From positions 15,309 to 79,308 of IMG/VR virus record IMGVR_UViG_3300048588_000114: a stretch of 64,000 nucleotides of DNA; one strand, given 5' to 3'. This DNA comes from a virus. Lineage: Duplodnaviria; Heunggongvirae; Uroviricota; Caudoviricetes. This document shows positions 6,954 through 63,289 of the stretch, piece by piece. The notes below the pieces were generated by a model that saw nothing but the letters and a program-made list of their open reading frames with translations, was not told the origin of the DNA and made no database searches. The translations under genes and the position numbers were made by a program. Within the stretch, counting starts at the first letter, position 1. Each line of letters begins with the position of its first letter.

Positions 6954-6957
6954 TATC

Positions 6958-38057: not shown

Positions 38058-38090
38058 AAAAGGGTGGGGCTTAGGCTTCACCCTTTTTGT
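38058..38090 (+). terminator. rho-independent terminator
   Basis: GGGTG-GGGCTTAGGCTT-CACCC followed by TTTTTG. Confidence 0.55.
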
Positions 38091-38118
38091 TCATTGTTAT
38101 TTATCAAAAGTACTAATT

Positions 38119-46252: not shown

Positions 46253-47241
46253 TGAAAACAGACATAGTTGTAATTGGTAGTGGCCTTATAGGTAGTATGG
46301 TCACTAAATATCTTCGTGAAGTGCGAGGTATGGAAGTAGTGATAATAGACCAAAAGAACACCATGGCCGCTTCCAAGTGTAGTTTTGGCGTGTGGAAAGA
46401 AGGTTGGGTCAATGAGGTTATCCAGAAAGAATACAAGGACGGCTTAGAGCTATTAGATACTTTTAGCGGAGGAATCAAAGAAGAAGAATTCATTATCAAG
46501 CCGAAGCCCTATAAAAACAGGTCTATGGTAGATACATATGAGGTTAAATTAGAGATGAAGGCAGAAACCTTTAAGCGGGTGGATTGCTCTCTACTTCTGA
46601 ATGAGGAATCAATCAATGCTACGGTTCTCTCTATAGATCAAAACCGGGTTACGATCTTACATGCTGGCAAAGAGCAACGCAAAGAAGTCATTGTAGCTAA
46701 GCATATTGTGGTTGCTGCTGGGGTTTGGACTACCGACATACTAACAGAGAATGGACTGATGAATAATCTGCCTTATCTTGACCGCCAGTGGGGGGCTGTA
46801 TTCCATCTAAAAGGGAATGGCGATGTGAATTTACCAGCATCACAGATGCAAGAGTGGGCACCCTATAAACAGTCAGTATTCGTCAATTTAGGCAATAATC
46901 GTGGTGTATTTGGAGATGGTGCAACCATTAAAAATCCTAAGCCGAATGACGATAAGGTGAGATTTGCTTCTGATAGAATTGTTCTCCATATGAATGATTT
47001 ACTAAAGAGAAACATTAAAGACGGCAAAGAAACCTATTCTCAGACTAAATTCACAGGAAGCATAACTGAAATTCTTGAAGGCTACAGGCCGTATCTAAAT
47101 AAGCAGAAATCACATACCGGGCGTTTTGTGAATCGTCACTCAGATTATGTTATTTCAGCTACAGGAGGCGCTAAAAACTCTACGATTCTTTGCGGTCACA
47201 TGGCTAAAGAAGTGTGGAGGCTAATTAAGGCCGCTGGGTAA
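46252..47241 (+). CDS. FAD-dependent oxidoreductase (DAO/glycine-oxidase-like Rossmann)
   Basis: N-terminal dinucleotide fold MKTDIVVIGSGLIGSMV...VVIIDQ (GxGxxG plus acidic end of beta2); C-terminal SATGGAKNSTILCGHMA. Confidence 0.65.
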   Translation: MKTDIVVIGSGLIGSMVTKYLREVRGMEVVIIDQKNTMAASKCSFGVWKEGWVNEVIQKEYKDGLELLDTFSGGIKEEEFIIKPKPYKNRSMVDTYEVKLEMKAETFKRVDCSLLLNEESINATVLSIDQNRVTILHAGKEQRKEVIVAKHIVVAAGVWTTDILTENGLMNNLPYLDRQWGAVFHLKGNGDVNLPASQMQEWAPYKQSVFVNLGNNRGVFGDGATIKNPKPNDDKVRFASDRIVLHMNDLLKRNIKDGKETYSQTKFTGSITEILEGYRPYLNKQKSHTGRFVNRHSDYVISATGGAKNSTILCGHMAKEVWRLIKAAG

Positions 47242-47305
47242 TTCTCAAAGTTATTAGCTACTCTACTAAAGAAGTAAAAGACATACCAATAAAATCAAGA
47301 AAACC

Positions 47306-47569
47306 ATGGCAAAACAAGAAACAAAAGCACCTGCAAAAAAGGCAGCGGCTAAAACGGATGATGGACAAATCTGGGCTTACAATGTAAGAGCTAAAGAAAA
47401 GCAAGTGATGCACAACGCTGTTATCAGCAAAACCACTCGTGGTGGTTTTATGGCTTCCGGAACATCGGAAGATGGCGAAACGAAGCTCACCACCATCCTA
47501 TCAGCAGCTAATGCTGAGAAGTTCGTTGAAAGCGGCGTAGCTAAAAAAGACAAGAAAACCTGGAAATAG
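47306..47569 (+). CDS. hypothetical small basic protein
   Basis: 87 aa, Lys/Ala-rich N-terminus. Confidence 0.45.
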   Translation: MAKQETKAPAKKAAAKTDDGQIWAYNVRAKEKQVMHNAVISKTTRGGFMASGTSEDGETKLTTILSAANAEKFVESGVAKKDKKTWK

Positions 47570-47601
47570 TTATTCTCAAAAACTAAACCCGGCTAAGAAG
47601 T

Positions 47602-47634
47602 GATGCCCTGCTGTGAAGTGGGGCATTTCTTTTA
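47602..47634 (+). terminator. rho-independent terminator
   Basis: GATGCCC-TGCTGTGAAGTG-GGGCAT followed by TTCTTTT. Confidence 0.55.
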
Positions 47635-47654
47635 ACCCACAGTTATCTAACAAC

Positions 47655-48593
47655 ATGAGCAGAAACATCTATCGAGATTTTGATATATTTGCCCGGGCAT
47701 TAGTTAAGTCTAATGATGTAGACCCGGTTTATCCAGTAGTTAGGGGAATCCTAAAAGCCTATCCAAAATACCAGCCTGAGTGGTTTATTTTCGTGTATGT
47801 TGCTTTCTACAATCTTGAGACGGCCATACAGTTCTGCGATTTATGGCCTACGGCTTTGAGTTTCCAAGAACCTCAGGCACATCGGGAGTTTATGGAGATG
47901 CGATTGGCTGGTAAACTAAAGAAATTTGGCCATGAGCGCCGGGGGTCTTGCCGGAATCCTAAGAATCAATTGGAGTTATTTGATGCTGCGACTTGTTTCA
48001 CAGAAGATTGTATTAAGGGACGTGGCTTGAAGCAAGCTGATAATCTAACCTTTCGTCAGGTGTTAATGGAGCATCCTTGGCACGGTTATTGGTCTTCCTA
48101 CAAGATCGCAGAATTGTTTGAGAAATCTTTAGGCTGGGACAACTTAAAGATCAATGACTTAGGAATTGACGGTAGAGACCCTAACAGTAATGATGGCCCT
48201 ATTGGAGGACTAAGATGGCTGTTTGATAGAGAAAGTCAATATAATTCCCTTTGGTATAAGATATGGAATAGATTTGGCAAGCGATTAAGCAAAGAATATG
48301 GGTGGGGGATAGGAGAAACAGAGACTTGCTTGTGTAAATTTCATAAATTGATGACCGGGAAGTATTATGTGGGTCATGATGTGGATGAATTTTATGATTT
48401 AAGGCATGTTTTAAGCCCGGAGAACTATCGAAACATATTGGGCAATAATTTTACTGGCTTTTGGGAAGAAGGCATTAAAGGGGTTAAAAAGCACCAAAAA
48501 TCGCACTACCAAAAAACTGGAGAGATTTTGAATTCACATTATGGGGATTCTGTTTCCCCGGTTGATGTGGAAAAACTAATACTTGAATTATGA
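47655..48593 (+). CDS. hypothetical ~313 aa enzyme-like protein, paralog A of a duplicated family (candidate DNA-modification transferase)
   Basis: ORF 47613-48593; ATG 47655 follows terminator. N-terminal NIYRDFD...EWFIFVYVAFYN is paralogous to NVYRELD...LFHILVFRIFNQ in 49889-50872. Alternates with P-loop kinases. Confidence 0.6.
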   Translation: MSRNIYRDFDIFARALVKSNDVDPVYPVVRGILKAYPKYQPEWFIFVYVAFYNLETAIQFCDLWPTALSFQEPQAHREFMEMRLAGKLKKFGHERRGSCRNPKNQLELFDAATCFTEDCIKGRGLKQADNLTFRQVLMEHPWHGYWSSYKIAELFEKSLGWDNLKINDLGIDGRDPNSNDGPIGGLRWLFDRESQYNSLWYKIWNRFGKRLSKEYGWGIGETETCLCKFHKLMTGKYYVGHDVDEFYDLRHVLSPENYRNILGNNFTGFWEEGIKGVKKHQKSHYQKTGEILNSHYGDSVSPVDVEKLILEL

Positions 48594-49264
48594 GTAAGCA
48601 GAAAATCTTAGTAGCAATACATGGCGGCGGCGGGAGTGGTAAGACCACCCAGCTAAAGAAGCTAATTGATTTCCTTTCAGAAGGAAAAAATGATGGAATT
48701 GTGGAGTCAAAAGTCATATCTAAGGAGAAGATGGACTACTGTTACACGCTTTATCCTAAGGCTAATCTAGCCGTTATAGGTAAATTAGGCGATAATCAAT
48801 GTACTGGATTAGATACAGTTTACAGTAAGTTAGGAAATGAAGGGGTTGGAAGAAGTATCAAAGCTGCCTTGGAGAATCCGGAAGTAGATATCATAGCAAT
48901 TGAGTGTTTGTTTTTAACCTTCAGTTGGTATGAGACTTGGGTGAAAATGGGTATTAGGAGCCAATTTAAGCTACTTTTCGTGCTGCTTGATCTATCTCTC
49001 TGGGACAACTTTAGGAGAATTCAATTGAGGCGTTTTAAGAAGAAGCCGGATGGCGTTGAGGACTATCGTGATGTGTTTCTTGAAGATACCGTTTACAAGA
49101 ATGTAGGCACTAAGAATGGTGAAGCGAGAATTATCTATCAAAAGATAGCCGGGGAACATCCTAAAAGCCTAACAAAGTGCGCTGATATGTGTTTTACGGT
49201 TGACGCTAAACTCCATCCTGACCTAATATTCAATAAGATTATTAATGCCATTTATAAGATATGA
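48590..49264 (+). CDS. P-loop kinase, paralog 2
   Basis: Walker A AIHGGGGSGKTT; QCTGLDTVYSKLGNEGV and NFRRIQLRR motifs shared with paralogs. Confidence 0.7.
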   Translation: MSKQKILVAIHGGGGSGKTTQLKKLIDFLSEGKNDGIVESKVISKEKMDYCYTLYPKANLAVIGKLGDNQCTGLDTVYSKLGNEGVGRSIKAALENPEVDIIAIECLFLTFSWYETWVKMGIRSQFKLLFVLLDLSLWDNFRRIQLRRFKKKPDGVEDYRDVFLEDTVYKNVGTKNGEARIIYQKIAGEHPKSLTKCADMCFTVDAKLHPDLIFNKIINAIYKI

Positions 49265-49884
49265 CTACTATCATCTGGATTGTTGCTGGCCTTTCTGTAG
49301 GCAAAACCACGTTAAACAAGGATTTGATTGAGGTTTTAGGTGATGAGCCACGCCGTCTCGTAGAGGGGACAAACAATGGTGTGCCTTATTGTTATACCCG
49401 TTATGGGGTGATTTGTAGTTTAGGCAATCTGAATGATTCCCAATGCTCAGGATTAGATAGAGTTAGTAGTAAATTAAAGAATGAAGGAATTGAAGAATCT
49501 ATAAAACAGGCAGTTAAGGATGGTGTTCAATTCATAATTGTAGAGAGTATCATGTCAGCGTCAACTTGGCTTGATTTCTTAAAGAAGCATACCGATAATT
49601 TACTAATGGTTCACTTATGTTGTGATTTTGAATCCAATGTGAGACGTCTAAAATACAGGCAATTTACAAGCCCGGATTATAAGGGAATTGCTGAAGCCCC
49701 AGTTGATATTAGACTTACTGATGGGAATTATGAGTTTATTCGCAAGACCCGGAAGCAATATCTGGCCATATATGAAAAGTTCAAAGACAAAGTTAATCAC
49801 AGTGTTAGTATTGATACTACCAACATCGGCACTAAAAAGGTGATGAAGGGAGTGCTGAAGCTAATTAACGACAGTCTTTCCTAA
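49261..49884 (+). CDS. P-loop kinase, paralog 3
   Basis: Walker A IVAGLSVGKTT; QCSGLDRVSSKLKNEGI and NVRRLKYRQ motifs. Confidence 0.7.
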   Translation: MTTIIWIVAGLSVGKTTLNKDLIEVLGDEPRRLVEGTNNGVPYCYTRYGVICSLGNLNDSQCSGLDRVSSKLKNEGIEESIKQAVKDGVQFIIVESIMSASTWLDFLKKHTDNLLMVHLCCDFESNVRRLKYRQFTSPDYKGIAEAPVDIRLTDGNYEFIRKTRKQYLAIYEKFKDKVNHSVSIDTTNIGTKKVMKGVLKLINDSLS

Positions 49885-49888
49885 GATT

Positions 49889-50872
49889 ATGGCATTATTA
49901 AATTTTCAAAGCAGCTATGGGACTAACTCAAATTTAGAGAAATCCCTACCGGACGCATCACTACAATTAGATGAGTTCCATTTAGACACGTTCTTCGGAA
50001 CAATGCTGGAGCGTCAGCGTATTACAATGAAGCGGCTTCGTGGAGAGCCGTGGCCTTGGACAGAGAATAAGTTTCTCCGGGACTATAAATTCACTAATGT
50101 TTACCGGGAATTAGATCGTAACTCTCAATGGGAAATCAACAATATCATAAAAAACGAGAAGTTGACTGACGAAGATACCCTATTCCACATCCTAGTTTTT
50201 AGGATATTTAATCAACCGGACTTCTTTGAATACAATAAAAAACACAAGGGATGGAAGAATGGTATTCCGCTCTTTAGAGAATTTAGTAAGGAGGCATTTG
50301 AACAGGCCATTTATGATTACAGGGCAACAGGGAATAATCCCTTCACTAATGCTTACCTTACTAATTCTCAATCTTGTCCCGGTCAAACCCGTGATTGGTG
50401 TTATGGCAACGTCATAATCCCTAACTATCATGAGCGTGTCCCAGAGTTTTTGGAGGCGTTTAAAGAGCATAAAACCGCTAAAGAGACAGCTAAAATGCTA
50501 GTAAGTCTCAAGTCAGCAGGTTGGTTTGTGGCTCATGAGTTCTATATTTCACTATGCTATATCGCTAAATATCGGGAAGAAACCTTCTTTCCTTGGACTG
50601 AAATGGATTGGACTAATGTTGGGCCTGGCGCTAGCTTAGGTTTAAGGCTTATATTTCCGAATCTTGATAGTACTTCTAAGCAATTAGAAGGTATCTTTTT
50701 GCTCCACAAAATGGCTAGATCTAAATTTAAGCAATTAGGTGGTTTTGAATGGTTAGATGAACGCAAAGAATTCACCCTTCATCAGATAGAATTTTGGTTG
50801 TGCGAATACGGGAAATACTATAAAATGATGGTTGGAGAAGGAAAGCAACGCTCTAAGTACATTCCACACTAA
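49889..50872 (+). CDS. hypothetical 327 aa enzyme-like protein, paralog B (candidate DNA-modification transferase)
   Basis: PWPWTENKFLRDYKFTNVYRELDR segment; same length and shared N-terminal motif with 47655-48593. Confidence 0.6.
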   Translation: MALLNFQSSYGTNSNLEKSLPDASLQLDEFHLDTFFGTMLERQRITMKRLRGEPWPWTENKFLRDYKFTNVYRELDRNSQWEINNIIKNEKLTDEDTLFHILVFRIFNQPDFFEYNKKHKGWKNGIPLFREFSKEAFEQAIYDYRATGNNPFTNAYLTNSQSCPGQTRDWCYGNVIIPNYHERVPEFLEAFKEHKTAKETAKMLVSLKSAGWFVAHEFYISLCYIAKYREETFFPWTEMDWTNVGPGASLGLRLIFPNLDSTSKQLEGIFLLHKMARSKFKQLGGFEWLDERKEFTLHQIEFWLCEYGKYYKMMVGEGKQRSKYIPH

Positions 50873-51384: not shown

Positions 51385-53484
51385 ATGATCAATTCATTAG
51401 ACTTTGCCGCTAACCTACACAAAATGAAGTGCAGGAATATCACTGCTGGTTTCGTAGGAGAAGCCGGAGAAATTCAAAAAGGAGAAGTAGAGGATGTAAT
51501 GGCCTATACTAAGTTTCAGTCAGCTGTCCATTCTAACAATATACTTGGGAAAGTGTCGGAAGACAAGACCCATCTATTGACTAAGGCAGTTGATATGGAT
51601 GAGGATATATTCCTCAAAGCCGTAAAAGATCAAGCACTGGAGGTTTATGACCACGGTAGTCTAAATAAGTTTAAATCAGATTTAGTAAAAGCCGCTGCTT
51701 CAGGGAAAGTGTCTTCTGACATAATTGAAAAGGCTAAAAAGGATTTAGGCAAACTTACTAAAGTCCAAGTGTCAGACAAGAACGGCCAAAAGCGCACTGT
51801 TTGGGTCAAGAGAGGAGGTGACGATGAAGCGTCACAGGGAAAGCAAGCTAAGGTTGCCTATGCCTCAGATACTAAGACTAAGGAAGAAGGTGACCACATT
51901 ATCAGCCGGGCTAAGGCTGCTTTAGATAATCCACGAACTCCAATGTCAATGAGAGCTAAGGCTCAAGAAATGATTGACGCTGAAAATAAGAAGTGGTCTA
52001 AAGAACAGGAAGCACATTCTGATTATTCTAACGAAAAACACCCACATCACGAGGCTTACAAGGCGGGGCATGAAGCCGCTAAGAGCGGGGGAACTTCTCA
52101 TGCCTATGATAAGAACTCTGAATCTGGTAAAGCAAAGGCAGAGGCTTGGGAAGCCGGGCATAAAGCTGCTGGAGGTGGTAAAAAACCTGACTATGACAAG
52201 GAACTCGAAGACATGTACGACAAAAAGACTGGCGGCGATAAGGAAAAAGCCCCGGAGGAAAAAAAGCCTGTGGAGAAACCTAAAGCCAAAGAAAAAAAGT
52301 CTGTAGATGATACTGAGAAACATGAGGCTAGACGTAAAGACTTAGCTAAACGTGCTCTTGACGAGCATAAAGATGTTGAAATAGCTTCGCATATTCTCGA
52401 CTCTAAGAAAACTAAACATACTGATTTAGACGGACATGAAAAAACCTTAAATGAGCTAACTAAAAAGAAAAAGAAGATTGATGAGAGTGTTAAAAAGTTA
52501 GTAGCCGCTGGATATTCTGAAGATGATGCTAATGATTTTGCTGATGAGCACTATCAAGGAGGCTCTAAACTTCCAGCGAAAGCTAAGGCTGTTATTGAAG
52601 GTAAGTATGAAAAGCCATCAATGACTAAAGAAAAAGCTAAGGAAATTACCTCTAAATACAACAAGGACGGCTCTGAAAAATCCAGTATGTCTAAGGAAAA
52701 GGCTAAAGAAATAACTTCTAAATACAATCGTGATGGTTCTGAGAAAAAAGCAGAGCCTAAAAAGCCTAATTCTAAAGAATCTGACGTTATTGGAGGCGTT
52801 AATGTTAGGAATTTAGCTAAGGAGGCAATAGATGAAGAACCTGAAGTAGAGGGCGATGGAGAAGACGCAATGGCAACTGGCGCTTGCGCTAGTATTACTG
52901 AGCATATTCATCAAAATTTAAAAAAGAAAGGCATAAAATCAGAAGTTTTAGACATAGCTCCAACTAAAACTCCATATTCTGGAGTTGGCCCAGATCACAC
53001 AGCCCTATATTTACCAGATCATGATTTGATTTTAGACACACAGGTTTGGCAATATCATAGTAAAACAGAGCTACCTGATGTTGATATTTCAAAACGAAAA
53101 ATCACTTACACTCCAGAGGAATATGAGAAATTAGGATTTGAAGTGCCTAAAGATATGCCTATGAATGGCAAATCAGCGTATTTGAAGAGAAGCGGTAAGA
53201 AAGAGGCAGAAAAAACACCTAAAAAGAGCATGAAAGACCATCTCAGCGACAAAGAAGGCTGGGAACGCAATAAAGAGTATGATATGGATTCTAAGCACGT
53301 AGGAGGAGGAATTCATGCCTTTAAAACGGATGAAGATCAAATGGTGTATATGTCTAATCCGGGGTCAGCCAAAGAGAAGGAACACACTGAAGAAGAAGCA
53401 GAAGCCGCCTACAAGAAGCATAAAGACAAGGTTGAGAAAGCCATGGAGGATGATTCAATCCTTGAAGAAGTAGGTAAAAACTAA
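51385..53484 (+). CDS. large Lys/Glu-rich low-complexity protein with internal tandem 20-aa repeat (candidate internal/ejected virion protein)
   Basis: 699 aa. Repeat SMTKEKAKEITSKYNKDGSEK / SMSKEKAKEITSKYNRDGSEK at ~52615-52745; folded-looking C-terminal domain. Confidence 0.6.
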   Translation: MINSLDFAANLHKMKCRNITAGFVGEAGEIQKGEVEDVMAYTKFQSAVHSNNILGKVSEDKTHLLTKAVDMDEDIFLKAVKDQALEVYDHGSLNKFKSDLVKAAASGKVSSDIIEKAKKDLGKLTKVQVSDKNGQKRTVWVKRGGDDEASQGKQAKVAYASDTKTKEEGDHIISRAKAALDNPRTPMSMRAKAQEMIDAENKKWSKEQEAHSDYSNEKHPHHEAYKAGHEAAKSGGTSHAYDKNSESGKAKAEAWEAGHKAAGGGKKPDYDKELEDMYDKKTGGDKEKAPEEKKPVEKPKAKEKKSVDDTEKHEARRKDLAKRALDEHKDVEIASHILDSKKTKHTDLDGHEKTLNELTKKKKKIDESVKKLVAAGYSEDDANDFADEHYQGGSKLPAKAKAVIEGKYEKPSMTKEKAKEITSKYNKDGSEKSSMSKEKAKEITSKYNRDGSEKKAEPKKPNSKESDVIGGVNVRNLAKEAIDEEPEVEGDGEDAMATGACASITEHIHQNLKKKGIKSEVLDIAPTKTPYSGVGPDHTALYLPDHDLILDTQVWQYHSKTELPDVDISKRKITYTPEEYEKLGFEVPKDMPMNGKSAYLKRSGKKEAEKTPKKSMKDHLSDKEGWERNKEYDMDSKHVGGGIHAFKTDEDQMVYMSNPGSAKEKEHTEEEAEAAYKKHKDKVEKAMEDDSILEEVGKN

Positions 53485-53496: not shown

Positions 53497-55149
53497 ATGG
53501 CTGGAAATAAGTTAGAGAAACTAATTCAATTAGAGCAAAAAGTAGGTAAACTAAAGGACAGGGAGATTGAAAAAGCCCTTTCCTCTAGCGACCCTAATGA
53601 GCTCATAAAAGCCCACTTAGCTTTCCAGAAGCAAGTAGAGGCACGTCAAGATCACGGCCACAAAGCATATCTGGTTGACCCTAATGAGTTCCAAAGTTCT
53701 TTTGGCTACAAAGATCGACCAGTCAATTTGTCCTATAATATGCTGAAGGGAATGGCGAGAGTGCCTGTAATTAATGCGGTCATAAAGACCCGTATCAATC
53801 AGGTTGCTGCTTTCTGTGAGCCTCAGAAGAATGAATATAGTGTTGGCTATGTTATTCGAAAACGTAAACTACCCGGTGAGAACTCTCCTACTAAAATGAC
53901 TAAGGATGAGAGACAGGAAATTTATGATCTTCAGGATTTCATGGAGAATTGTGGGGAAACAAATGTCTGGGGTGCTGATGATTTTGATGCTTTCTGTAGA
54001 AAGATAATCAGAGATAGTCTTGTATTTGATCAAATGACCTTTGAAGTAGAGAGGGACAGAAGAGGAAAGCCAGTGGCTTTTTATGCTGTAGATGCTTCTA
54101 CAATGAGACTATCTGAAAGTTTCGATGATCAGAACTATGAGCAGTATAAGAACACAATCAATGTAGGTACGAAGATAGCTAAGGTTCAAAATTACTATCC
54201 TTCCTATGCTCAGATATTGGATGGTAGTGTACATGAGCTATTTTATCCATGGGAAATGTGCTTTGGTATTCGGAATCCCACTACTGATGTTACAATGTCA
54301 GGATATGGAGTTTCTGAGTTAGAAGAATTAGTGTCTGTGGTTACATCTCTTGTCTGGGGAGAAGAATATAACAGACGTTTCTTCAAGCAAGGTTCTGCGC
54401 CTAAGGGTATTCTTAGGATTTCAGGCTCAATGCCTGATCATAAATTGAATGAGTTTAGGCAGAATTGGAACTCCACTATGCGTGGTGTCCAAAACGCCCA
54501 CCGAACTCCGGTTCTCGAAGCAGAGAAAGCTGATTGGATTGATCTTCAGCGCAATAATCGGGACATGGAGTTCACTCAATGGATGGAGTTCCTAATTAAG
54601 GTAGCTTGCGCCATTTATACCATAGACCCTTCTGAGATTAACTTCCCTATGAGTGGCTCAGCTGGCTCTTCTCCTATGTTTGGAGAAAACAAAGAGTCAA
54701 CATTGAAGTTTTCTCAAATGAAAGGTCTTTATCCCATCCTAAAGTTCCTACAAAAACGCATCAATAAGTATCTTATTCAGCCACGCAATCCTAAGTATGA
54801 GTTTGCTTTTGTTGGTTTAGATGCGATGACACCTAAGGAACAAGCCGAACTGGATGAGAAGTCAGTTAAAACCTACAAGACGGTGAATGAGTTGAGGAAA
54901 GAAAAGAACCTCAAGCCATTGCCGGGCGGGGATATATTGCTTGATTCTACTTTCGCTAGGGCTGTAAATGCAGAGAAACAGAGACAAATGATGGATGATA
55001 GCCAAGGATATGAGGACGGCGGTGCCGGGGCAGAAGAAGCCATTATTTCAGGTAAATATCCCGGCGGTGAGGCTGAGGAAGAACTGGATAAAAATAATCC
55101 AATTATCAAATCCTTAGAGGAGTTCTTGATTGGCATCAATACGAAATAA
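53497..55149 (+). CDS. candidate portal protein
   Basis: 550 aa at the head of the capsid-morphogenesis block; size and position are typical. No decisive motif. Confidence 0.45.
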   Translation: MAGNKLEKLIQLEQKVGKLKDREIEKALSSSDPNELIKAHLAFQKQVEARQDHGHKAYLVDPNEFQSSFGYKDRPVNLSYNMLKGMARVPVINAVIKTRINQVAAFCEPQKNEYSVGYVIRKRKLPGENSPTKMTKDERQEIYDLQDFMENCGETNVWGADDFDAFCRKIIRDSLVFDQMTFEVERDRRGKPVAFYAVDASTMRLSESFDDQNYEQYKNTINVGTKIAKVQNYYPSYAQILDGSVHELFYPWEMCFGIRNPTTDVTMSGYGVSELEELVSVVTSLVWGEEYNRRFFKQGSAPKGILRISGSMPDHKLNEFRQNWNSTMRGVQNAHRTPVLEAEKADWIDLQRNNRDMEFTQWMEFLIKVACAIYTIDPSEINFPMSGSAGSSPMFGENKESTLKFSQMKGLYPILKFLQKRINKYLIQPRNPKYEFAFVGLDAMTPKEQAELDEKSVKTYKTVNELRKEKNLKPLPGGDILLDSTFARAVNAEKQRQMMDDSQGYEDGGAGAEEAIISGKYPGGEAEEELDKNNPIIKSLEEFLIGINTK

Positions 55150-55499: not shown

Positions 55500-55916
55500 A
55501 TGTTTTATAGTCTAATCCTCAAATCGAAGCAAACGTTTATGTGGTCTCATTTCTTAGTGTTTTTGGTGTCGTTGATTATGCCAATCCTGCCAGCAATAGT
55601 GATAACTGGTGTTCTCATCTTCACTGATTTTGCTACTGGCTTATATGCGGCTCACAAAACTAAGAAACGCATCACTTCAAGCAGGATGAGAGACACTATT
55701 GATAAGATATTTGTCTATAATACAAGCATCATACTTGCTTATTTGATAGAGAGATACATGCTTCAGGGGGCTTTTCCGGTTCTCCGTGTAGCGCTTGGCT
55801 TTATCGCATTAGCTGAGTTCAAATCAATTTCTGAGAATTTCCATAAAATAACTGGGATAAATCTACATAAGAAGATTTTATCCTATTTGAAAAAGAAACA
55901 CGACTTAGAACTTTAG
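55500..55916 (+). CDS. multi-TM small membrane protein (holin-like)
   Basis: 138 aa with 3 predicted TM helices (FLVFLVSLIMPILPAIVITGVLIF, SIILAYLIERYM, VALGFIALAEF). Confidence 0.45.
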   Translation: MFYSLILKSKQTFMWSHFLVFLVSLIMPILPAIVITGVLIFTDFATGLYAAHKTKKRITSSRMRDTIDKIFVYNTSIILAYLIERYMLQGAFPVLRVALGFIALAEFKSISENFHKITGINLHKKILSYLKKKHDLEL

Positions 55917-55922
55917 ATAATA

Positions 55923-56192
55923 ATGGCTTTCGGCGTTAAACATATCGTAAAAGAGACCCCTAAATGGGCAACTTGGATGTTCAGAATTGTCTTGGCTCTG
56001 ACTACAGCGGCGTCAATATGGATAAGCGGAACATCCATCATTGAGGATTCTATAAAAGTAGAAATAATCAATGGCTTGAAAGTTTTCGACTGTTTAGCTT
56101 TAGTATTTTCTAAAATGTTCGGTGTTGATGTAAATGTAACCACTGATAATGAAGGAAATGAACAAACTACAGACGAAACACCCGCTAATTAA
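55923..56192 (+). CDS. small single-TM protein
   Basis: WMFRIVLALTTAASIWISGTSII TM; charged C-terminus. Confidence 0.4.
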   Translation: MAFGVKHIVKETPKWATWMFRIVLALTTAASIWISGTSIIEDSIKVEIINGLKVFDCLALVFSKMFGVDVNVTTDNEGNEQTTDETPAN

Positions 56193-56919
56193 TCTAAAAA
56201 ACATTATTATTCTGTTGCTCCTCTTAGCTGTAATGGCATTAGGAGCAATAGTTATGTTAAATAACAACCGAAGTATTAGTCCTAGTCAATATAAGGCATT
56301 AGAGGACTCAATTCATTCCTATCGGGATAAGGATGGTAATCATATAGCTACCATTCGATCTTTAGAGTTTGCTAATGCTAAGCAACTTTTGCGTCTTGGA
56401 GCACAAGATAGCTCCATTAGATGGTTACAGCAATCTATGAGGGATTTTAAAGGTGAAGTTAGGGCTGCTATAGTATTGGGCATAAATACAGTATCTCAAG
56501 GGTCATCCTCTACTACAATTTTACCCGGAGACACCATTAGAAGTGGCGACACTCTCAAGCTATATCCGCATTATGAGACTAATTGGTCTAATAAATGGGA
56601 ATTAGGGCACATCAAGGCCACTAAAGATTCTATATTCAGAAATATAAAAACTATCAATGAGTTAGAGATTATTACAGGGTATCAGAAGAATCGTTGGATA
56701 TTCTTCAATTCTCCAGACCTTGAGGTGAAAGTCAAAAATCTAAATCCTAACACAGTCACTCAAGAGCTAAGAAGTTTCAACGTTAAAAACGAAACAAACA
56801 GGTTCAGCTTAGGAGCGAGTGGGGGAGTCATGTGGATACCGGGATTAAATCCTAAGCCGTACATAGGTATTGGAATCAATTACGACATAATAAGATTCAA
56901 GAAGTGGCGAAAACGCTAA
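56149..56919 (+). CDS. signal-anchored periplasmic protein (lysis accessory candidate)
   Basis: N-terminal IIILLLLLAVMALGAIVML TM followed by ~220 aa soluble domain. Confidence 0.5.
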   Translation: MKEMNKLQTKHPLINLKNIIILLLLLAVMALGAIVMLNNNRSISPSQYKALEDSIHSYRDKDGNHIATIRSLEFANAKQLLRLGAQDSSIRWLQQSMRDFKGEVRAAIVLGINTVSQGSSSTTILPGDTIRSGDTLKLYPHYETNWSNKWELGHIKATKDSIFRNIKTINELEIITGYQKNRWIFFNSPDLEVKVKNLNPNTVTQELRSFNVKNETNRFSLGASGGVMWIPGLNPKPYIGIGINYDIIRFKKWRKR

Positions 56920-57089
56920 AAAAACATAATCACGGGAAAGACCTTCCCCGGTACAAGGTAGTTGTAGGCTATGAGAAAGACTTCAAAATGGCCTATGCTA
57001 AGCACTTAGGTACAGCAATAACTACAGTAATAGAAAAACTTAATGATACTAACCCCAGCCCAGATACAGGAATTAGTCAAGATAATTGA
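56904..57089 (+). CDS. hypothetical small protein
   Basis: 61 aa ORF overlapping both neighbours. Confidence 0.3.
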   Translation: MAKTLKKHNHGKDLPRYKVVVGYEKDFKMAYAKHLGTAITTVIEKLNDTNPSPDTGISQDN

Positions 57090-57963
57090 AAATCAACATC
57101 TCATTTTCTTGGCTAATACAGTTGGGACTGGTATTCTCTCCCAATCTGACTTAGATATTCTAACTAGTCATGGGATAGATGTGACTAAATTACCCACATA
57201 TGGTGTAGTTGACGATGCTTTTCGTTTCGGAATATTAGCGGATGCGCTTGGAAGCGAGAAAGCTAAGAAAATGTCTTATAGTGATTTCAAGAATACCCTA
57301 AAGAGTGGCGGTTTCCTTCCCTTAACTAAGGCAGAAAAAATTAGTCTTGATCACATAAAGCAACGCACTTATAGTGATGTAACTGGATTAGGTACTAAAA
57401 TCGGTAAAGATTTAAGCAATATAGTCATAGAGAACTCTAAGAAACAAAGAGCGCAATATGAGAAAATTCTACAAGATACAATAGCTGCTGGCGCTGAGAA
57501 GAGCAGGTCTGCTCGTGAAATTGCTTCAGATTTAGGCCACGCCACAAAAGATTGGGCAAGGGACTTCGATCGCATAGCTGATTATGTACTTCATGAAGCT
57601 TTTGATACAGGTAAAGCCATGTCCATACTAAGAGAAGCGGAGGCGGCTGGTGAAGAAGCGTATGGCTACAAAGAAGTTTATGAAGGAGCATGTCAGCATT
57701 GTATTAGTCTTTATCTAACAGACGGCATTGGAAGTAAGCCCCGGATATTCAAAATGTCTACACTCATTGCCAACGGCTCTAATATTGGTCGGACGGTAAA
57801 GGAATGGAAACCCGTGATAGGCTGTACTCATCCTTGGTGCCGTTGCGAATTATACCATCTCAGACCTAATAATGAGTGGGATTCAGAAAAGAAAATGTTT
57901 GTCCTTAAACGTAACACCTACGGAGTTACAAGGAAATCTAAAATCAAAATCATATCGGAATAA
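57043..57963 (+). CDS. putative head-morphogenesis protein (Mu gpF / SPP1 gp7-like position) with C-terminal Cys4 motif
   Basis: 306 aa between portal region and protease; CQHC...CTHPWCRC zinc-like cluster. Confidence 0.45.
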   Translation: MILTPAQIQELVKIIENQHLIFLANTVGTGILSQSDLDILTSHGIDVTKLPTYGVVDDAFRFGILADALGSEKAKKMSYSDFKNTLKSGGFLPLTKAEKISLDHIKQRTYSDVTGLGTKIGKDLSNIVIENSKKQRAQYEKILQDTIAAGAEKSRSAREIASDLGHATKDWARDFDRIADYVLHEAFDTGKAMSILREAEAAGEEAYGYKEVYEGACQHCISLYLTDGIGSKPRIFKMSTLIANGSNIGRTVKEWKPVIGCTHPWCRCELYHLRPNNEWDSEKKMFVLKRNTYGVTRKSKIKIISE

Positions 57964-59951
57964 TGGAAACATTAGTAAACACCTACATTGGGGAAGCTCT
58001 CATCCCCAGAGGCACCATCGCCTTAGACATTCAGGGAAGAGATTTTATGATAAAACGTGATGTTTACATGAAAATCACTAAAGCACAAGATGGGGAATTG
58101 ACTTTTGAGCACGATGGGGAATTTTATTTCGTTAAGGCTCATCAAACCTCTTTCAGAAAATACGAAAATCCCATCGAAATTCTACCTGAGAGCATCGAAA
58201 AGTCCGAATCCAATACTTTGCCCACCGTGGAGGCCAAAGGTCACGATAAAGGCGAAAAATTGTCCGAATCAACTGGTGTAGATTTCGCCTACAAAAAATA
58301 TATGGACAAATCTCTTGGTAGGAAGAGAGAGCAAATGCCACAATTTGATTCTGATACGTTGGCCGATGTGTTGGTTCACTTCGCACAGAAGGTTAAAGTA
58401 GTGAAAACAAAGAGAAAATTGAGTTCTCTCAAGCCAGCCCAAGGCGAAATCAATGAAGATAAGATTTTAGAGCGAATAAAGTCTAAGTATGATGGATGGA
58501 AAGATCGTGAGTACATTATCAGCTTAGACGGTTACATTATGGATGGTCATCATGATTGGGCTCATGGCTTAGATATTGATGAAGATGCGGAAGTTGACTG
58601 TTGGCGCATTAATCTGCCTATAAAAGTCTTATTAGTTAGAGCGAATAAGCTAAATGTAGCTAAGAAAAAAGATATTGAGGGCAATGAAATCGAGAAGGGA
58701 AAGCATGAGGAGATGGTTCAAGTTCACGGGAAGAACAAGACTTTCTACAGAAAGCAGATGGTAGGCCATAAGGATGAGCCTAAAGAAGCTACTGTGAAGA
58801 CAATAATGGGAGAAATGAGAACAATGAAGCCTAAGAAAGTAGCTGCTTCAGAACAAGAACCCACTAAACGCATAAGCCTGAAGCCTAAAGTAGAACATGC
58901 TAAGCGTGAGAGAACCCCTCAATGGTATGACAAATACACTGAAAAGCATGGGAAAATGCGGGGTCTTCCAATAGGTATGGATGAAAGCGAAGTTCAAATT
59001 AATCATGCGGCTAAAGACCCCCACGGAGAATGGCTGATGAAGTATAAAGACAAGAAAGGTGTCAATAAAACCGTTTACACCGAAGAATTCATGCGCCGTA
59101 ATGCTGAGAAGAAGTGGGCTCGCATCAAGAATATCAACCCTGCTCAAGTGAAATTAGTAAAAACTCAACCTATAAAGCTATTGGATAAAGAAGGTTTAGA
59201 TGATACATCGAAGCAATCCTTAGCTGTTATAGCGATTATAGCAAATACAGGGCTGCGTCCCGGTAGCCGTGTTGGGTATATGAGAACTAAAAACCGGGGA
59301 GTGTCCACCCTTCACCCAGATAATGTAAAGATAACAGGTGACCGTATAGATTTCGACTTCATCGGGAAATCATATCAGCAGAATGTATCTACAATTGTGG
59401 ATAAGAAGCTGGCTCAATACCTCACAAAGCTAAAGAAAGACAGGAAAGGGGAGCAATTCTTGTTTAATGTGAACAAGACCCATTTAATGACGACATTTAG
59501 AGATAAGTTAGGATTTAAGGGGTTGAAGTTGAAGGATTTAAGGACATATGTAGCCACTGATTTAGCTAAAAATCTTTTGTTTGAATCTAAACTGCCGCCA
59601 TTGCCATTAGCTGATAATCCTAAAAAGAACAAAGCGAATCTACAAAAGAAACTTCAAACCGTGTTTGAGGCTGTTTCTCAGAAGCTCAACAACACCCCGG
59701 CTATGGCGAAAACAAGTTATATCCATCCAGCAGTCATTGATGCTCACATTATTTCCATTGGCATGGATAAAACAGAACTACAAAAAGGTGGGGAAGAAGA
59801 GAAAAAAACAGTGCCTAGTTTAGCTGAAATCGCTAAAAATAGCAATTACGAAGGAAAAGACATCGAAACGTCCACGGATGATGACGAAGACGAAGATTTA
59901 GATGTTTTGTATCCACTTCCAGCATGGTGGGACGAATCCCTAATGGATTAA
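57963..59951 (+). CDS. ParB-like N-terminal domain fused to type IB topoisomerase domain
   Basis: Topo IB: GVSTLHPDNVKITGDRIDFDFIGKS, EQFLFNV, KLKDLRTYVATDLA (cf. poxvirus KDLRTYGVN), and active-site Tyr in NTPAMAKTSYIHP with Asn in place of His as in bacterial TopIB. N-terminal ParB-like YIISLDGYIMDGHHDWAHG. Confidence 0.8.
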   Translation: METLVNTYIGEALIPRGTIALDIQGRDFMIKRDVYMKITKAQDGELTFEHDGEFYFVKAHQTSFRKYENPIEILPESIEKSESNTLPTVEAKGHDKGEKLSESTGVDFAYKKYMDKSLGRKREQMPQFDSDTLADVLVHFAQKVKVVKTKRKLSSLKPAQGEINEDKILERIKSKYDGWKDREYIISLDGYIMDGHHDWAHGLDIDEDAEVDCWRINLPIKVLLVRANKLNVAKKKDIEGNEIEKGKHEEMVQVHGKNKTFYRKQMVGHKDEPKEATVKTIMGEMRTMKPKKVAASEQEPTKRISLKPKVEHAKRERTPQWYDKYTEKHGKMRGLPIGMDESEVQINHAAKDPHGEWLMKYKDKKGVNKTVYTEEFMRRNAEKKWARIKNINPAQVKLVKTQPIKLLDKEGLDDTSKQSLAVIAIIANTGLRPGSRVGYMRTKNRGVSTLHPDNVKITGDRIDFDFIGKSYQQNVSTIVDKKLAQYLTKLKKDRKGEQFLFNVNKTHLMTTFRDKLGFKGLKLKDLRTYVATDLAKNLLFESKLPPLPLADNPKKNKANLQKKLQTVFEAVSQKLNNTPAMAKTSYIHPAVIDAHIISIGMDKTELQKGGEEEKKTVPSLAEIAKNSNYEGKDIETSTDDDEDEDLDVLYPLPAWWDESLMD

Positions 59952-59969: not shown

Positions 59970-61703
59970 ATGAAGAAGAATAATAATTTCAAATTCTGGG
60001 TTCCCTTAGAATTTTCCAAGGCTAAGAATGAAACCACCGGAGAAGTTGAGATGAAAATAGGCGGGATTGCCTCTACATCAGCGAAAGACAGCGATGATGA
60101 GGAATTAGACCCGGCAGGTTTTGATCTCAGTGTCCTAAAATCCCATGGTGTCATCAATTGGCACCACATGCAAAAGACCAATCCAGATGCGATTATTGGC
60201 GAACCCACTAAGGCAGAACTAACTCCAAAAGGGTTGTATTTAGAGGCAAAGCTCTATCCAGATAGTGAATTAGCTAAAAAAGTTTACAAATTAGCTGAAG
60301 TTTTAGCTAAAAATTCTAAAACCCGTAGACTTGGATTTTCCATCGAAGGCAAGAAGACAGAAGTTGACCCTAATGATGAAACAAAAATCCTGAAGGCAAA
60401 GATCACCGGGTGCGCCATCACCTATCTTCCAAAGAATCCTACCACATTTGCTGATATCATCAAAGGTCATGAGGTTGAGGAACCTATCTATGAATTTGAT
60501 GAGGAGATAGAAAAAAGTGACCTTTCAATCAAGGCATTGAATAACGCCGCTAATGGCGGTGCAGTTAAATTCTTAGTAAATCTAACGACCAAGGACGGAA
60601 AGACCGTGAAGGTCACTGAAGATGGTGAAATAACAGTTGATATGTCTAAATCATTAACAACAGAAGCCGGGAGCGGGGGTGCTCTCAAGAAAGAGCATGT
60701 AGATTCAGGGCTCAAGGAAACAATCAAAACAAGTGATAAACCTAAGGAATTAACAAAAGCCGAAGCCTTTGATAAAATATTTTCTGATTTCCCAGATATA
60801 GACATTCAAAAGGCTAAGCAAATTTTCAATACAACAACTAAAATTACTGCCATGAGCAAAGAAAAAACCAAACCTACAAAGGATGAAATCGAGAAGGCCT
60901 ACGCTGTTTTAGGTCTCAACAATGAATCAGAAGATGATAACATTGAAAAAGGCGAAAACACTACCGAATCAGAAGATGAGGTAAAACCGCCAGCAAAGAA
61001 ACCAGCAGCACCAGCTAAAACAGCTACTGTTGAAAAAGGTGGAGGCGACAAAGGCCCAGATGAAGAAGAGGAGGAAGAGGAAGAAGAGGACGAAGAACCA
61101 GCGAAACCAGCAAAAAAAGATATGAATAAAGCACAATCCAGCGACCTGATGTATTTCCAGAAGGGCGACAATTACGTAGCCATGGTAAACAAAGGCGGCG
61201 AACTTCAGGAAGTCCCTGATAAATTATTCCAAAAGACCGCAAGCGGCTACCAGGAAATCATCAAAACCCCTATCGAGAAATCAATTGAAGAAAACATTGG
61301 AAAACTGCTCAATGGCCAGTCAGACCTTCAAAAAGCTATCGGTGTAGTGGTTGGTGACCTGAAAGCTCAGGTAAGTGGTCTGCAAAAACAGGTGGAAGAA
61401 ATGAGTGGACAGCCCACAGGCCGTAAATCGGCTACAAACGCCACAGTGAAAGAAAAGAAATTTGCTGGTGCAAATGATGACCTTACCAAAGGCCGTACCG
61501 ATGGCAAGACCCTCTCTATCAAGAATCGTAACGCAGTATTGTCAGTGCTTGAGAAAGCAATGTACTTGCCGCTTGAGAAAGGCCAAGGTGGTCTCGATGC
61601 TGGTTTTGAGAAAGCAATGACCACTTTTGAAGCCAGCGGGCAGATTTCTGCACAAAACGTAGGCCGTCTTGAGCGTGAATTCGGAATATTCCTCGTGGAC
61701 TAA
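59970..61703 (+). CDS. prohead protease (HK97 gp4-like) fused to scaffold-like C-terminal region
   Basis: N-terminal KIGGIASTS...DPAGFDL...INWHH...LGFSIEGK resembles the HK97-family prohead protease core. C-terminal half is coiled-coil with poly-Glu tract EEEEEEEEDEE. Confidence 0.6.
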   Translation: MKKNNNFKFWVPLEFSKAKNETTGEVEMKIGGIASTSAKDSDDEELDPAGFDLSVLKSHGVINWHHMQKTNPDAIIGEPTKAELTPKGLYLEAKLYPDSELAKKVYKLAEVLAKNSKTRRLGFSIEGKKTEVDPNDETKILKAKITGCAITYLPKNPTTFADIIKGHEVEEPIYEFDEEIEKSDLSIKALNNAANGGAVKFLVNLTTKDGKTVKVTEDGEITVDMSKSLTTEAGSGGALKKEHVDSGLKETIKTSDKPKELTKAEAFDKIFSDFPDIDIQKAKQIFNTTTKITAMSKEKTKPTKDEIEKAYAVLGLNNESEDDNIEKGENTTESEDEVKPPAKKPAAPAKTATVEKGGGDKGPDEEEEEEEEEDEEPAKPAKKDMNKAQSSDLMYFQKGDNYVAMVNKGGELQEVPDKLFQKTASGYQEIIKTPIEKSIEENIGKLLNGQSDLQKAIGVVVGDLKAQVSGLQKQVEEMSGQPTGRKSATNATVKEKKFAGANDDLTKGRTDGKTLSIKNRNAVLSVLEKAMYLPLEKGQGGLDAGFEKAMTTFEASGQISAQNVGRLEREFGIFLVD

Positions 61704-61768: not shown

Positions 61769-63289
61769 ATGAACGGCTTAGGAAATTTAGGCATCAACCT
61801 GTCGGCTTACAACAATGTTGTGAACGACAATCAGGTGTTGTTTGGCAATGCCAGCACATCGATGGAGCAACTCAATGATTTATCCAAAGCGTTAGAGGCT
61901 GGCGAGATCACAGGACGTGAGACCACCAACTCTACTACAGCTTCAGGCGCAGGTCTGAAAATGGAAAGTTTGGATAAAACACTGAAATTGCTGACCTACC
62001 GTGAAAGTGAGATCGTGCTGTGGAAGAAAATTCCTAAGCTAGCGGCTTACAACACTGTAGAGGAGTACAATCAATTAGCGTCATACGGTCAAGACCGTGG
62101 AGGCTTCATGCAAGAAGGTGGTTTACCACTGGAAGAAGACAGCACTTACATCCGTAGGGCGCAGTTAGTGAAGTTCCTTGGTGTGACCAAATCAGTGACT
62201 CACCCAATGACCTTAGTGCAAACTATGATCGGGGATGTTATTGCCCGTGAAGCTAAGAACGGTTCACTGTGGATTCTCCGCAAGCTGGATAAAGCCCTAA
62301 CTAAGGCTAATTCACGCCTCGTGGCTGAAGAGTTCAATGGACTTTACGCTCAGCACGAAGAAAACGATGCTTATTCAAGCAAAAACGCCTACTACAACGG
62401 AAACGAAGTGGTTGTTGACTTGCGTGGGGACTACCTGCAAGAGAAATACATTGAGCGTGGCGCTGAAGGAATCATTGAAAACTTCGGTTTGGCTAACGAA
62501 TTGTTTGCTCCACCTAAAGTACTGAGTGACTTTGTTCAATCATTCTACGGAAATAAGTTCATCCAGCCTAATTCAGAAATGACTTCTGCTGGTGGAATGG
62601 GTCAAAAAGTTAACTACTTTGATTCGCAATTTGGCCGTATCAACCTGAACTGGGACATCTTCATGAATAAAGGTGCTAACAAAACCACTGCTACACCAGC
62701 TGAATCACCTAACGCTCCTGCGGTAATTGTGCCTGACGGTTCAACTCCTATCGCTGCCGTTGCTGCTACTGCTGCCAATACAATGTGGGCTTCTACAGAT
62801 GCTGGTGCGTACTTCTACGCAGTGAGTGCATTCAACATGTACGGTGAATCAGCATTGACTGCTTTATCTGCTTCAGCGACTACAATCGCAACAGGTGGTG
62901 CAGTTGACCTTAAATGGGCTGCTGGCGCTGGCGCTAATGCTGCAACTGGTTTCCGTGTGTATCGTTCACAAAAAGGTGCTGTTTCCGTAGCTACTTCAAC
63001 ATTCTATCCATTGTTCGACGTTACCCAGACTGAGATCACTGCTGGATATGATGGAGGTGCAGCCGGGTTGGTAAGGGACTTAAACCGTATTATGCCTAAC
63101 TGTAATCAGGCTTTCATGCTTCAAATGGACGAAGATGTACTGGCTTTCCGTCAGTTGGCTCCATTAATGAAAATGGATTTAGCGATGATCTCTACCGCTT
63201 ACCGTTTCATGATTCTCCTTTATGGAACTCCGCTGTTGTTCGCTCCTAAGAAAATGGTGCGTTACATCAACATCGGTTTGAAACCCTAA
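61769..63289 (+). CDS. major capsid protein candidate with Ig/Fn3-like insertion
   Basis: 506 aa directly downstream of protease-scaffold. Internal segment GGAVDLKWAAGAGANAATGFRVYRSQKG is Ig/Fn3-like. Terminator follows. Confidence 0.6.
   Translation: MNGLGNLGINLSAYNNVVNDNQVLFGNASTSMEQLNDLSKALEAGEITGRETTNSTTASGAGLKMESLDKTLKLLTYRESEIVLWKKIPKLAAYNTVEEYNQLASYGQDRGGFMQEGGLPLEEDSTYIRRAQLVKFLGVTKSVTHPMTLVQTMIGDVIAREAKNGSLWILRKLDKALTKANSRLVAEEFNGLYAQHEENDAYSSKNAYYNGNEVVVDLRGDYLQEKYIERGAEGIIENFGLANELFAPPKVLSDFVQSFYGNKFIQPNSEMTSAGGMGQKVNYFDSQFGRINLNWDIFMNKGANKTTATPAESPNAPAVIVPDGSTPIAAVAATAANTMWASTDAGAYFYAVSAFNMYGESALTALSASATTIATGGAVDLKWAAGAGANAATGFRVYRSQKGAVSVATSTFYPLFDVTQTEITAGYDGGAAGLVRDLNRIMPNCNQAFMLQMDEDVLAFRQLAPLMKMDLAMISTAYRFMILLYGTPLLFAPKKMVRYINIGLKP

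Follow-up and report, generated by a model that had tools for sequence, protein, structure and literature searches.

Why should a tailed phage carry a type IB topoisomerase (TopIB) among the genes that build its head? The question is raised by a stretch of 64,000 nucleotides (positions 15,309 to 79,308 of the IMG/VR virus record IMGVR_UViG_3300048588_000114, assigned to Caudoviricetes; hereafter the window), in which the open reading frame (ORF) at 57963-59951 encodes a 662-amino-acid (aa) protein with a ParB/sulfiredoxin (Srx)-fold domain followed by a TopIB module. TopIBs are known from eukaryotes, some archaea, scattered bacteria, poxviruses, and mimivirus, and the poxvirus enzyme is carried in the virion core; to our knowledge, TopIB is essentially absent from the phage literature. 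We put the probability at about one half that this gene encodes a capsid-internal polyvalent cargo protein, the working part of which is predicted to be an active, short-form TopIB swivelase. Since relatives in other phages are fused directly to the portal protein, the TopIB is probably carried inside the phage capsid, as it is in poxviruses. Nucleotide coordinates refer to the window and residue numbers (aa) to the 662-aa protein of this ORF.

The topoisomerase module and its active site

The gene and the parts of its product are as follows.

57963..59951, + strand: whole gene, taken from the ORF listing; 662-aa fusion of a ParB/Srx-fold domain and a TopIB, a candidate cargo protein of the polyvalent type
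57963..58247, + strand: N-terminal region, aa 1-95, a small acidic domain (net charge -6)
58275..58697, + strand: ParB/Srx-fold domain, aa ~105-245, with three conserved motifs
58698..58994, + strand: Lys-rich linker, aa 246-344, net charge +8, placed by charge and motif positions
58995..59762, + strand: short-form TopIB module, aa ~345-600, a putative small N-terminal beta domain plus the catalytic core, net charge +24, placed by Pfam PF01028 and the 2f4q alignment
59256-59258, + strand: codon of R432, by residue mapping
59367-59369, + strand: codon of K469, by residue mapping
59541-59543, + strand: codon of R527, by residue mapping
59691-59693, + strand: codon of N577, by residue mapping
59718..59720, + strand: codon (TAT) of the predicted catalytic Tyr586, by residue mapping and family invariance
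59763..59948, + strand: acidic C-terminal tail, aa 601-662 (62 aa, net charge -14), ending in YPLPAWWDE, with PLPAWW at 59913-59930

The Pfam family Topoisom_I (PF01028) matched aa 380-595 with an E value of 4.8e-18 and a score of 65.8 bits, the curated cut-off being 23.7 bits. When the single sequence was searched against the PDB, two proteins were matched, both of them TopIBs, one archaeal (6z01; 1.3e-8) and the other from Deinococcus radiodurans (2f4q; 6e-8). The alignment with 2f4q spans aa 348-605 and takes in the small N-terminal TopIB domain, of which aa 348-387 align to D. radiodurans residues 55-94, so the TopIB module could be placed at approximately aa 345-600; Top1B_N_bact, the Pfam family of this small domain, matched the homologue P0039 but not the window protein. 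A profile built from 19 family sequences gave five matches in the PDB, exclusively TopIBs.

D. radiodurans TopIB: 1e-25
Caldiarchaeum (archaeal) TopIB: 2e-19
Variola TopIB: 8e-16
Vaccinia TopIB: 1e-12
Leishmania TopIB: 5e-12

Counted through the alignment, R432, K469, R527, N577, and Y586 fall on positions 137, 174, 239, 280, and 289 of 2f4q, and R137, K174, R239, N280, and Y289 of that structure are what we take to be the catalytic Arg-Lys-Arg-Asn-Tyr of D. radiodurans TopIB. None of the catalytic Arg and Lys residues has been lost, R432, K469, and R527 all being retained in register with 2f4q. The R-K-R-N-Y pentad is invariant in 36 complete family members and is also kept in the more distant members from viral contigs, including every fusion to a portal protein (see below). 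A preliminary description of this locus had likened the motif KDLRTYVAT (aa 524-532) to the poxvirus KDLRTYGVN and had pointed to an Asn in place of the general-acid His near TSYIHP (aa 584-589), as in bacterial TopIBs. Both observations hold: variola TopIB reads KDLRTYGVN and has its His in GHTPSISKRAY, whereas the phage protein has Asn577 in NNTPAMAKTSY, aligned to Asn280 of 2f4q. The same description had put a full TopIB signature at the C-terminus, and here the signature stands, with its pentad intact, but the module is followed by the 62-aa acidic tail and so does not form the extreme C-terminus.

In TopIB chemistry, the Tyr cleaves one strand to form a 3'-phosphotyrosyl intermediate, and controlled rotation is followed by religation, with no requirement for ATP or Mg2+. 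Judged by sequence comparison, the gene encodes a bona fide TopIB that is nearest to the bacterial short form, an identity we regard as secure, and its active site, complete and conserved, is apparently active. A tyrosine recombinase or protelomerase was considered and rejected: the window protein had no Phage_integrase match, its pentad is of the TopIB type instead of the R-K-H-R-H/W-Y pattern of those enzymes, and its PDB profile matches were to TopIBs only.

Among solved structures, the best match is D. radiodurans TopIB (PDB 2f4q/3m4a), to which the phage protein aligns over the region of the small N-terminal domain and over the core, and with which it has all five catalytic residues in common, Asn280 included. 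The bacterial enzyme is a stand-alone cellular protein of 346 aa, whereas the phage TopIB lies within a 662-aa mosaic encoded in a capsid operon. The poxvirus TopIBs (vaccinia and variola; PDB 2h7f and 1a41) share with the phage enzyme the short form, the catalytic Arg-Lys-Arg-Tyr, and KDLRTY. However, they are only distantly related to it, with a profile E value of 8e-16 as compared with 1e-25 for the bacterial enzyme, and they have His at the place of Asn577; the ParB/Srx-fold domain at the N-terminus and the acidic tail belong to the phage enzyme. In addition, residence in the virion is a property of the poxvirus enzyme and a prediction for that of the phage. We take the resemblance to poxviruses as one of functional analogy.

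Capsid context and the flanking domains

All substantial ORFs of the window are on the + strand, and the head genes around the TopIB gene are arranged in the following order.

38053-39855, + strand: large terminase (Terminase_6N/6C), ~13 kb upstream of the portal gene
51385-53484, + strand: 699-aa ORF directly upstream of the portal gene, with no match in Pfam, PHROGs, or NCBIfam
53497..55149, + strand: portal protein (Pfam Phage_portal, 1.2e-27; phrog_12, 8e-57)
55500-56919, + strand: a 138-aa holin-like gene and a DUF6808/DUF6549 gene, lying with small ORFs between the portal and MuF-like genes
57043..57963, + strand: MuF-like minor capsid (head morphogenesis) gene, 306 aa, putatively assigned by fold, motif, size, and position
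59970..61703, + strand: prohead maturation protease (phrog_1028, 1.6e-40, aa 2-160), prolonged at the C-terminus by a long, possibly scaffold-like region
61769..63289, + strand: major capsid protein (phrog_752, 1e-80; 47% identity to Bacteroides phage DAC19)

The MuF-like gene begins 1.9 kb downstream of the portal gene, and its TAA stop overlaps the ATG of the TopIB gene as TAATG. From this overlap geometry, which is observed directly, we infer that translation of the TopIB is coupled to that of the MuF-like gene. The arrangement portal...MuF-like, TopIB (overlapping), protease, and major capsid protein was kept in six other metagenomic loci (L001, L002/L025, L013, L014, L015, and L017), the proteins of which are 36-62% identical where measured, and additional domains make the TopIB ORFs of these loci vary in length from 349 to 1,242 aa. 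The closest homologue of the window protein, P0001, is 77% identical across 99% of the query; a megablast search with the TopIB gene against cultured phages gave no match. Judged by the major capsid protein, the nearest cultured relatives are the Bacteroides DAC phages (47% identity), and DAC19 keeps the portal, MuF-like, protease, and major capsid protein genes, with an unrelated 552-aa ORF in the TopIB slot right after the MuF-like gene. The position after the MuF-like gene is a variable slot, presumably for cargo. The TopIB homologues are themselves mosaics in which Zeta toxin, NUDIX, 2H/Acb1-like, DUF5661, SNF2, and ClpP domains occur in varying order.

Four loci encode a portal protein that continues at its C-terminus into an intact TopIB, two portal families being involved (positions are those of each locus).

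4571-7225: portal::TopIB fusion P0039 (L010), Phage_portal_3, 2.5e-69
2681-5179: portal::TopIB fusion of L026, Portal_Mu
4219-6726: portal::TopIB fusion of L028, Portal_Mu
4303-6747: portal::TopIB fusion of L032, Portal_Mu

The Portal_Mu matches of the last three were at about 1e-34 to 1e-38. In all four fusions, the R-K-R-N-Y pentad is intact and the protein ends directly after the TopIB, without the acidic tail. The gene order at the P0039 locus is terminase, portal::TopIB, an ART protein, a Pfam Phage_Mu_F protein, and a giant NUDIX protein. As far as comparison of genes can tell, these fusions offer the most telling evidence that the enzyme may be associated with the capsid. Among other lineages, the TopIB gene was found in L018 between the genes for tail sheath and baseplate hub/tape measure, in L030 downstream of the portal and near a DarB-like helicase, and in L011 near neck and tail genes. 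In L034 (4366-6918) and in L035 and L036 (both 4294-6918), the TopIB core is placed inside an SNF2/DEAD-type helicase, between the SNF2 N-lobe and Helicase_C; one of these three contigs is 147 kb long.

The assignment of the upstream neighbour draws on structure prediction. The AlphaFold2 model of the MuF-like protein had a predicted local distance difference test score of 84, and in a BFVD fold search the first three matches were to its own family or unnamed, after which the named ones were almost all head morphogenesis, minor capsid, or MuF-like proteins, with probabilities of mostly 0.7-1.0, E values of 1e-3 to 5e-2, and low template modeling scores of 0.25-0.38. The family has invariant C220, H263, C266, and C268 in a C..C...HPWCRC motif (signature C..C...H..CRC), and the protein is equal in length to SPP1 gp7, with the CRC motif at the matching position. 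A PDB profile search of the family was negative or non-significant, and none of 119 homologues of the protein carried a MuF label. The product of the upstream gene has a fold of the MuF type, its gene follows that of the portal, and effectors tend to be attached at its C-terminus, as in the homologue P0251, which is fused to a C-terminal InPase domain; the gene appears to be MuF-like by fold, motif, size, and position, not by profile membership. The TopIB gene had been described at the outset as lying between a Mu-F-like gene and the prohead protease. This is upheld for the protease by phrog_1028 and for the upstream gene by fold, motif, and position, but by no MuF sequence profile.

Some features of the surrounding genes were observed in addition. 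HINT/intein domains are inserted near the region of the conserved Cys/His motif in four homologues of the MuF-like protein (P0263, P0291, P0293, and P0295). The L002 homologue of the maturation protease has a faint Peptidase_S78 label. Lysis-type genes also occur within the head module in L001 (7560-8948, in which the holin homologue is Phage_holin_4_1) and in L002 (7522-8944), and L002 carries an Amidase_2 gene at the same place between the portal and MuF-like genes.

An alignment of 15 sequences of the N-domain revealed three conserved motifs, R..MPQ (aa 120-127), KPxQ.EIN (aa 156-164; also as KPTQ.EIN), and DGHH[D/R/S/A]W, and the domain has the alpha/beta ParB/Srx fold. The last motif reads DGHHDW at aa 194-199, with the canonical Arg of the superfamily replaced by Asp198; an Arg follows DGHH in 3 of 15 close relatives, in 60 of 164 domains of the wider family, and in 1 of 10 TopIB-linked members. 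A search of aa 95-260 against Pfam at E<=10 gave no match, PF02195 (ParBc) and PF08857 (ParBc_2) included, and weak ParBc_2 matches were obtained with Arg-containing relatives alone (0.045 for P0035; best, 1.3e-4). In PHROGs, the N-terminal half matches the unnamed family phrog_2859 at 2.8e-20. The earlier proposal of a ParB/sulfiredoxin-like N-terminus is thus supported by DGHHDW and by the fold, but not by a canonical Arg or a Pfam ParB match at E<=10.

The N-domain is the ParB/Srx-fold domain of a separate, large phage family, which an exhaustive profile search resolved into 5,416 clusters at 50% identity; a word-indexed search with the N-domain alone had given 2 hits. Because the canonical phosphate-binding Arg is missing, this module is more likely to serve for binding, as an adaptor or in contact with DNA, than as a nucleoside triphosphatase or nuclease. 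Members of the family are fused to NUDIX, ART, SNF2, Zeta, GNAT, SAM lyase, and ClpP and XkdF prohead proteases, and the domain is found inside virion structural proteins of ~3,800 aa in Pseudomonas phage Epa33 and Klebsiella phage ZX1. The region of aa 4-224 aligns, at 23-24% identity, to inner stretches of the giant virion proteins that Klebsiella phage ZX1 and Pseudomonas phage Itty13 encode, and aa 1-95 had no Pfam match at E<=10.

Neither was any Pfam family (E<=10) assigned to the Lys-rich linker, in which aa 252-268 form a short recurring motif, VQVHGKNKTFYRKQMVG; similar motifs are present at the N-termini of P0004, P0006, P0011, and P0013 in an alignment read by eye. The tail motif [YF]PLPxWW[DE] follows the TopIB in 12 homologues besides the window protein (set P0001-P0019), and L020 has an LPKWW variant. 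This motif was found once in the window, in the TopIB gene, and is absent from the portal-fused TopIBs. Since the portal-fused forms do without it, the tail would fit a targeting or auto-inhibitory peptide, which is speculation.

A proposed capsid cargo and the competing explanations

Packaging in the virion had been offered earlier as a possibility, and the comparative evidence strengthens it considerably, since the TAATG overlap, the synteny in six loci, the variable slot in DAC19, the portal fusions, and the presence of the N-domain in virion proteins and proteases all point to it. In the mechanism that we propose, the TopIB protein would be made late in infection, its translation coupled to that of the MuF-like minor capsid protein, and would enter the procapsid near the portal vertex via MuF or portal contacts, with the ParB/Srx-fold domain, the acidic YPLPxWW tail, or both serving as a loading or DNA-tethering element. 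It would then exit the capsid with the DNA or act on the DNA at the portal. There, Tyr586 would attack one strand to give a 3'-phosphotyrosyl intermediate, the duplex would swivel, and the nick would be resealed, without ATP or Mg2+. Torsional stress could be relieved in this way as the long linear, probably hypermodified genome threads the portal and is first transcribed, a role suggested by analogy with the encapsidated vaccinia TopIB, which supports early transcription. For the window protein, an ejected or entry-phase role is favoured because its relatives carry effector domains of the cytoplasmic type.

A protein of this kind would belong with the polyvalent proteins (Iyer et al. 2017; P1 DarB/DdrB, T4 Alt, and MuF- or portal-fused effectors), which have at least two unrelated domains, a late or virion context, and shuffling among orthologues, as here. 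Their partner repertoire of NUDIX, Zeta, ART, SNF2, 2H, InPase, and ParB-fold domains and portal fusion recurs in the TopIB relatives. Late-gene context and fusion to MuF or portal proteins were used by Iyer et al. as the criterion for packaged, injected effectors (PMC5512222), and we found in this family unrelated domains with mosaic relatives, a late or virion gene context, and portal fusion. The main text of that study makes no mention of TopIB, the word "topoisomerase" occurring just in one reference title (PMC5512222).

The MuF polymorphic toxins (Jamet et al. 2017) provide another parallel, with a variable effector attached to, or right after, the MuF protein downstream of the portal, likewise in the window. 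However, the effector of the window phage is a separate overlapping ORF and its MuF-like protein is outside Pfam MuF, and whereas MuF toxins come from temperate phages, the phage of the window, a large myovirus, showed no integration genes in those parts that were examined. Topoisomerases are missing from the list of MuF toxin domains, and SPP1 gp7, a MuF protein, binds the portal and has 1-2 copies per capsid (PMC5576092).

Several observations weigh against a capsid-loaded cargo protein. Many members of the TopIB family are solo, without a recognisable targeting element. The MuF-like protein had no MuF profile membership (PF04233, PF06152, or TIGR gp7) in Pfam (E<=10), PHROGs, or NCBIfam, and when it was compared with SPP1 gp7 by hhalign, just the CRC motif was aligned, with a probability of 1.5%. 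The ParB/Srx-fold domain lacks the conserved phosphate-binding active-site Arg (GxxR/DGhHR), and no similarity to P1 DdrB could be detected; a DdrB-like ParB domain was rejected at an hhalign probability of 0.3%, obtained with the 15-sequence profile on a single-sequence template of limited sensitivity. When fused to the portal, a TopIB would remain in the capsid unless it were cut free, which is easier to reconcile with an in-capsid than with an injected role. Finally, we infer packaging, ejection, and substrate alike from gene content, for the window protein and for every homologue.

The portal fusions make an in-capsid swivel the main rival. The TopIB could remain at the portal vertex and relax the twist arising from terminase packaging or spool unwinding, with no injected effector involved, which we consider unlikely while taking it seriously. 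In its favour, portal::TopIB fusions with intact active sites have arisen four times independently, across two portal families; portal proteins point their C-terminus into the capsid; the gene is part of the head-assembly operon; and an enzyme of a family needing neither ATP nor Mg2+ could work within a capsid. Yet most tailed phages package their DNA without such an enzyme, and in the lineage of the window the TopIB is a separate polypeptide, joined to NUDIX, Zeta, and 2H domains that are sensible only in the host cytoplasm. Nor does a fusion prove retention, as C-terminal extensions of portal proteins can be removed by maturation proteases, for example in Mu gpH.

It is quite improbable that the protein acts on the host as an injected anti-host or anti-defence effector, relaxing or nicking, together with its ParB/Srx module, the host chromosome or defence-related DNA and so shutting down supercoiling-dependent functions. 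Partner domains typical of conflict systems (Zeta toxin, NUDIX, and 2H/Acb1-like), neighbouring ART genes, and a nearby DarB-like gene agree with this idea, and MuF-linked slots often carry toxins (PMC5576092). However, no immunity-like gene was identified adjacent to the TopIB gene, the downstream gene being a protease, and the normal, religation-competent pentad is strictly conserved in the family, while TopIB reseals DNA efficiently and is normally non-toxic alone.

We see just as little likelihood in an ordinary, non-virion late enzyme, a cytoplasmic topoisomerase for replication, late transcription, or concatemer processing that happens by chance to be encoded in the head operon. The phage does encode a Mini-A topoisomerase-like protein, a helicase, and DNA-hypermodification enzymes, and late operons sometimes hold unrelated genes, as with the lysis genes between the portal and MuF-like genes here. 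Such an enzyme would not account for the association with structural modules, which recurs in unrelated lineages, nor for covalent fusion to portal proteins, and none of the TopIB loci examined is in a recognisable replication module.

A strand that a TopIB holds covalently can be passed on to a heterologous 5'-OH, and the enzyme can be caught close to a DNA end, as vaccinia TopIB suicide substrates show. A role in DNA-end processing, as a TopIB-fold protelomerase, a site-specific recombinase, or an end-capping or circularising enzyme for the linear genome, is nevertheless highly improbable: although MuF/gp7 proteins bind DNA at the portal (PMC5576092) and the Xanthomonas phage TopIB weakly matches Phage_integrase (5.5e-4), the window protein has no integrase or protelomerase match, its PDB profile matches are exclusively to TopIB, and its R-K-R-N-Y pentad is that of a TopIB.

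Other genes, rarity, and significance

Upstream of the head genes, the window contains a second topoisomerase-like gene and a set of DNA-modification genes.

43621-44673, + strand: Mini-A/Topo VI-A-like protein, 350 aa (phrog_6247 'DNA topoisomerase', 3.6e-86), with RQLYY and DFDPSG (Toprim) motifs
46252-47241, + strand: flavin adenine dinucleotide-dependent oxidoreductase
47613-48593, + strand: amino acid:DNA transferase ADDT, PF18724
49889-50872, + strand: 5-hydroxymethyldeoxyuridine DNA kinase, PF18723, 9.6e-54

The phrog_6247 match agrees with the TopoVIA-like gene reported in the preliminary description. The 350-aa protein had no Pfam match at 0.01 and no PDB sequence match. It agrees with the Mini-A family (Takahashi et al. 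2019), which is known biology, having been described in phages already (PMC7671362). The genes at 46252-50872 make up a likely thymidine-hypermodification cluster, and the phage DNA is probably hypermodified; L001 has the same hypermodification genes upstream of its portal gene. Also on the + strand, a patatin-like phospholipase (PF01734, 3.4e-15) is encoded mid-genome at 29135-30028 and an SPFH/Band 7 protein (PF01145, 7.5e-16), again mid-genome, at 31248-32780. A phrog_1250 protein is encoded at 9173-10324 on the same strand, and in the unrelated viral contig L023 a homologous member of its family (8460-9833) follows closely after the TopIB gene.

TopIB is rare in phages. It was present in 5 of 50,697 cultured-phage records, all of them Xanthomonas/Erwinia jumbo phages, and a pattern-limited scan of 2.9 million viral contigs yielded 25 TopIB loci. 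In the jumbo phages (PhiXhv-12 XYR92681.1, Ep026, and Ep032), the product annotated as "topoisomerase" matches PF01028 at 1.6e-19, and its gene, which is part of a structural region, overlaps the end of the one before it, as in the window. These proteins are 33% identical to the window protein over about 100 aa, neither a ParB/Srx domain nor a PLPxWW tail was detected in them, and their upstream gene is SprT-like zincin, not MuF-like. Two limited scans of 185,579 species-representative genomes, made for a host or prophage link, found no close TopIB relative: the one with a single protein found nothing, and the one with a degenerate NNTPAMAK pattern gave 25 matches, motif-only or by chance, with ~9 expected by chance.

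A rough neighbor-joining tree, computed without support values from 192 columns of the TopIB core, placed the phage sequences in at least two deep clades, with the single bacterial (D. radiodurans) and the single poxvirus sequence outside them; its distances are saturated and the result is not decisive. In full-text literature searches, no account of a phage TopIB associated with the virion came up. In 2009, Forterre and Gadelle postulated an undiscovered group of viral Topo IBs, related to or the source of bacterial Topo IB (PMC2647321). That this group corresponds to a deep, diverse clade of capsid-resident TopIBs, tethered to the portal vertex covalently or via MuF-like partners and acting on the genome during its threading through the portal, as a packaging or ejection swivel or in the covalent capture and rejoining of genome ends on entry, is an improbable extension of our results.

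What is new at this locus is the combination and the location, since the enzyme family and the delivery strategy are both known already. Tailed phages encode TopIBs in the capsid module, some of them fused to the portal, which would parallel the encapsidated enzyme of poxviruses, and an activity on DNA topology would join the catalogue of virion-delivered polyvalent proteins. The present sequence set lets the idea of a viral origin for bacterial Topo IB be tested (PMC2647321), and a small, ATP- and Mg-independent swivelase in a capsid-targeting context is a possible model for cargo loading or a possible enzyme reagent. For the biology of these phages, the locus raises the question of whether packaging, ejection, or first transcription needs a torsional relief that some of them supply on their own, and whether this may be linked to hypermodified DNA.

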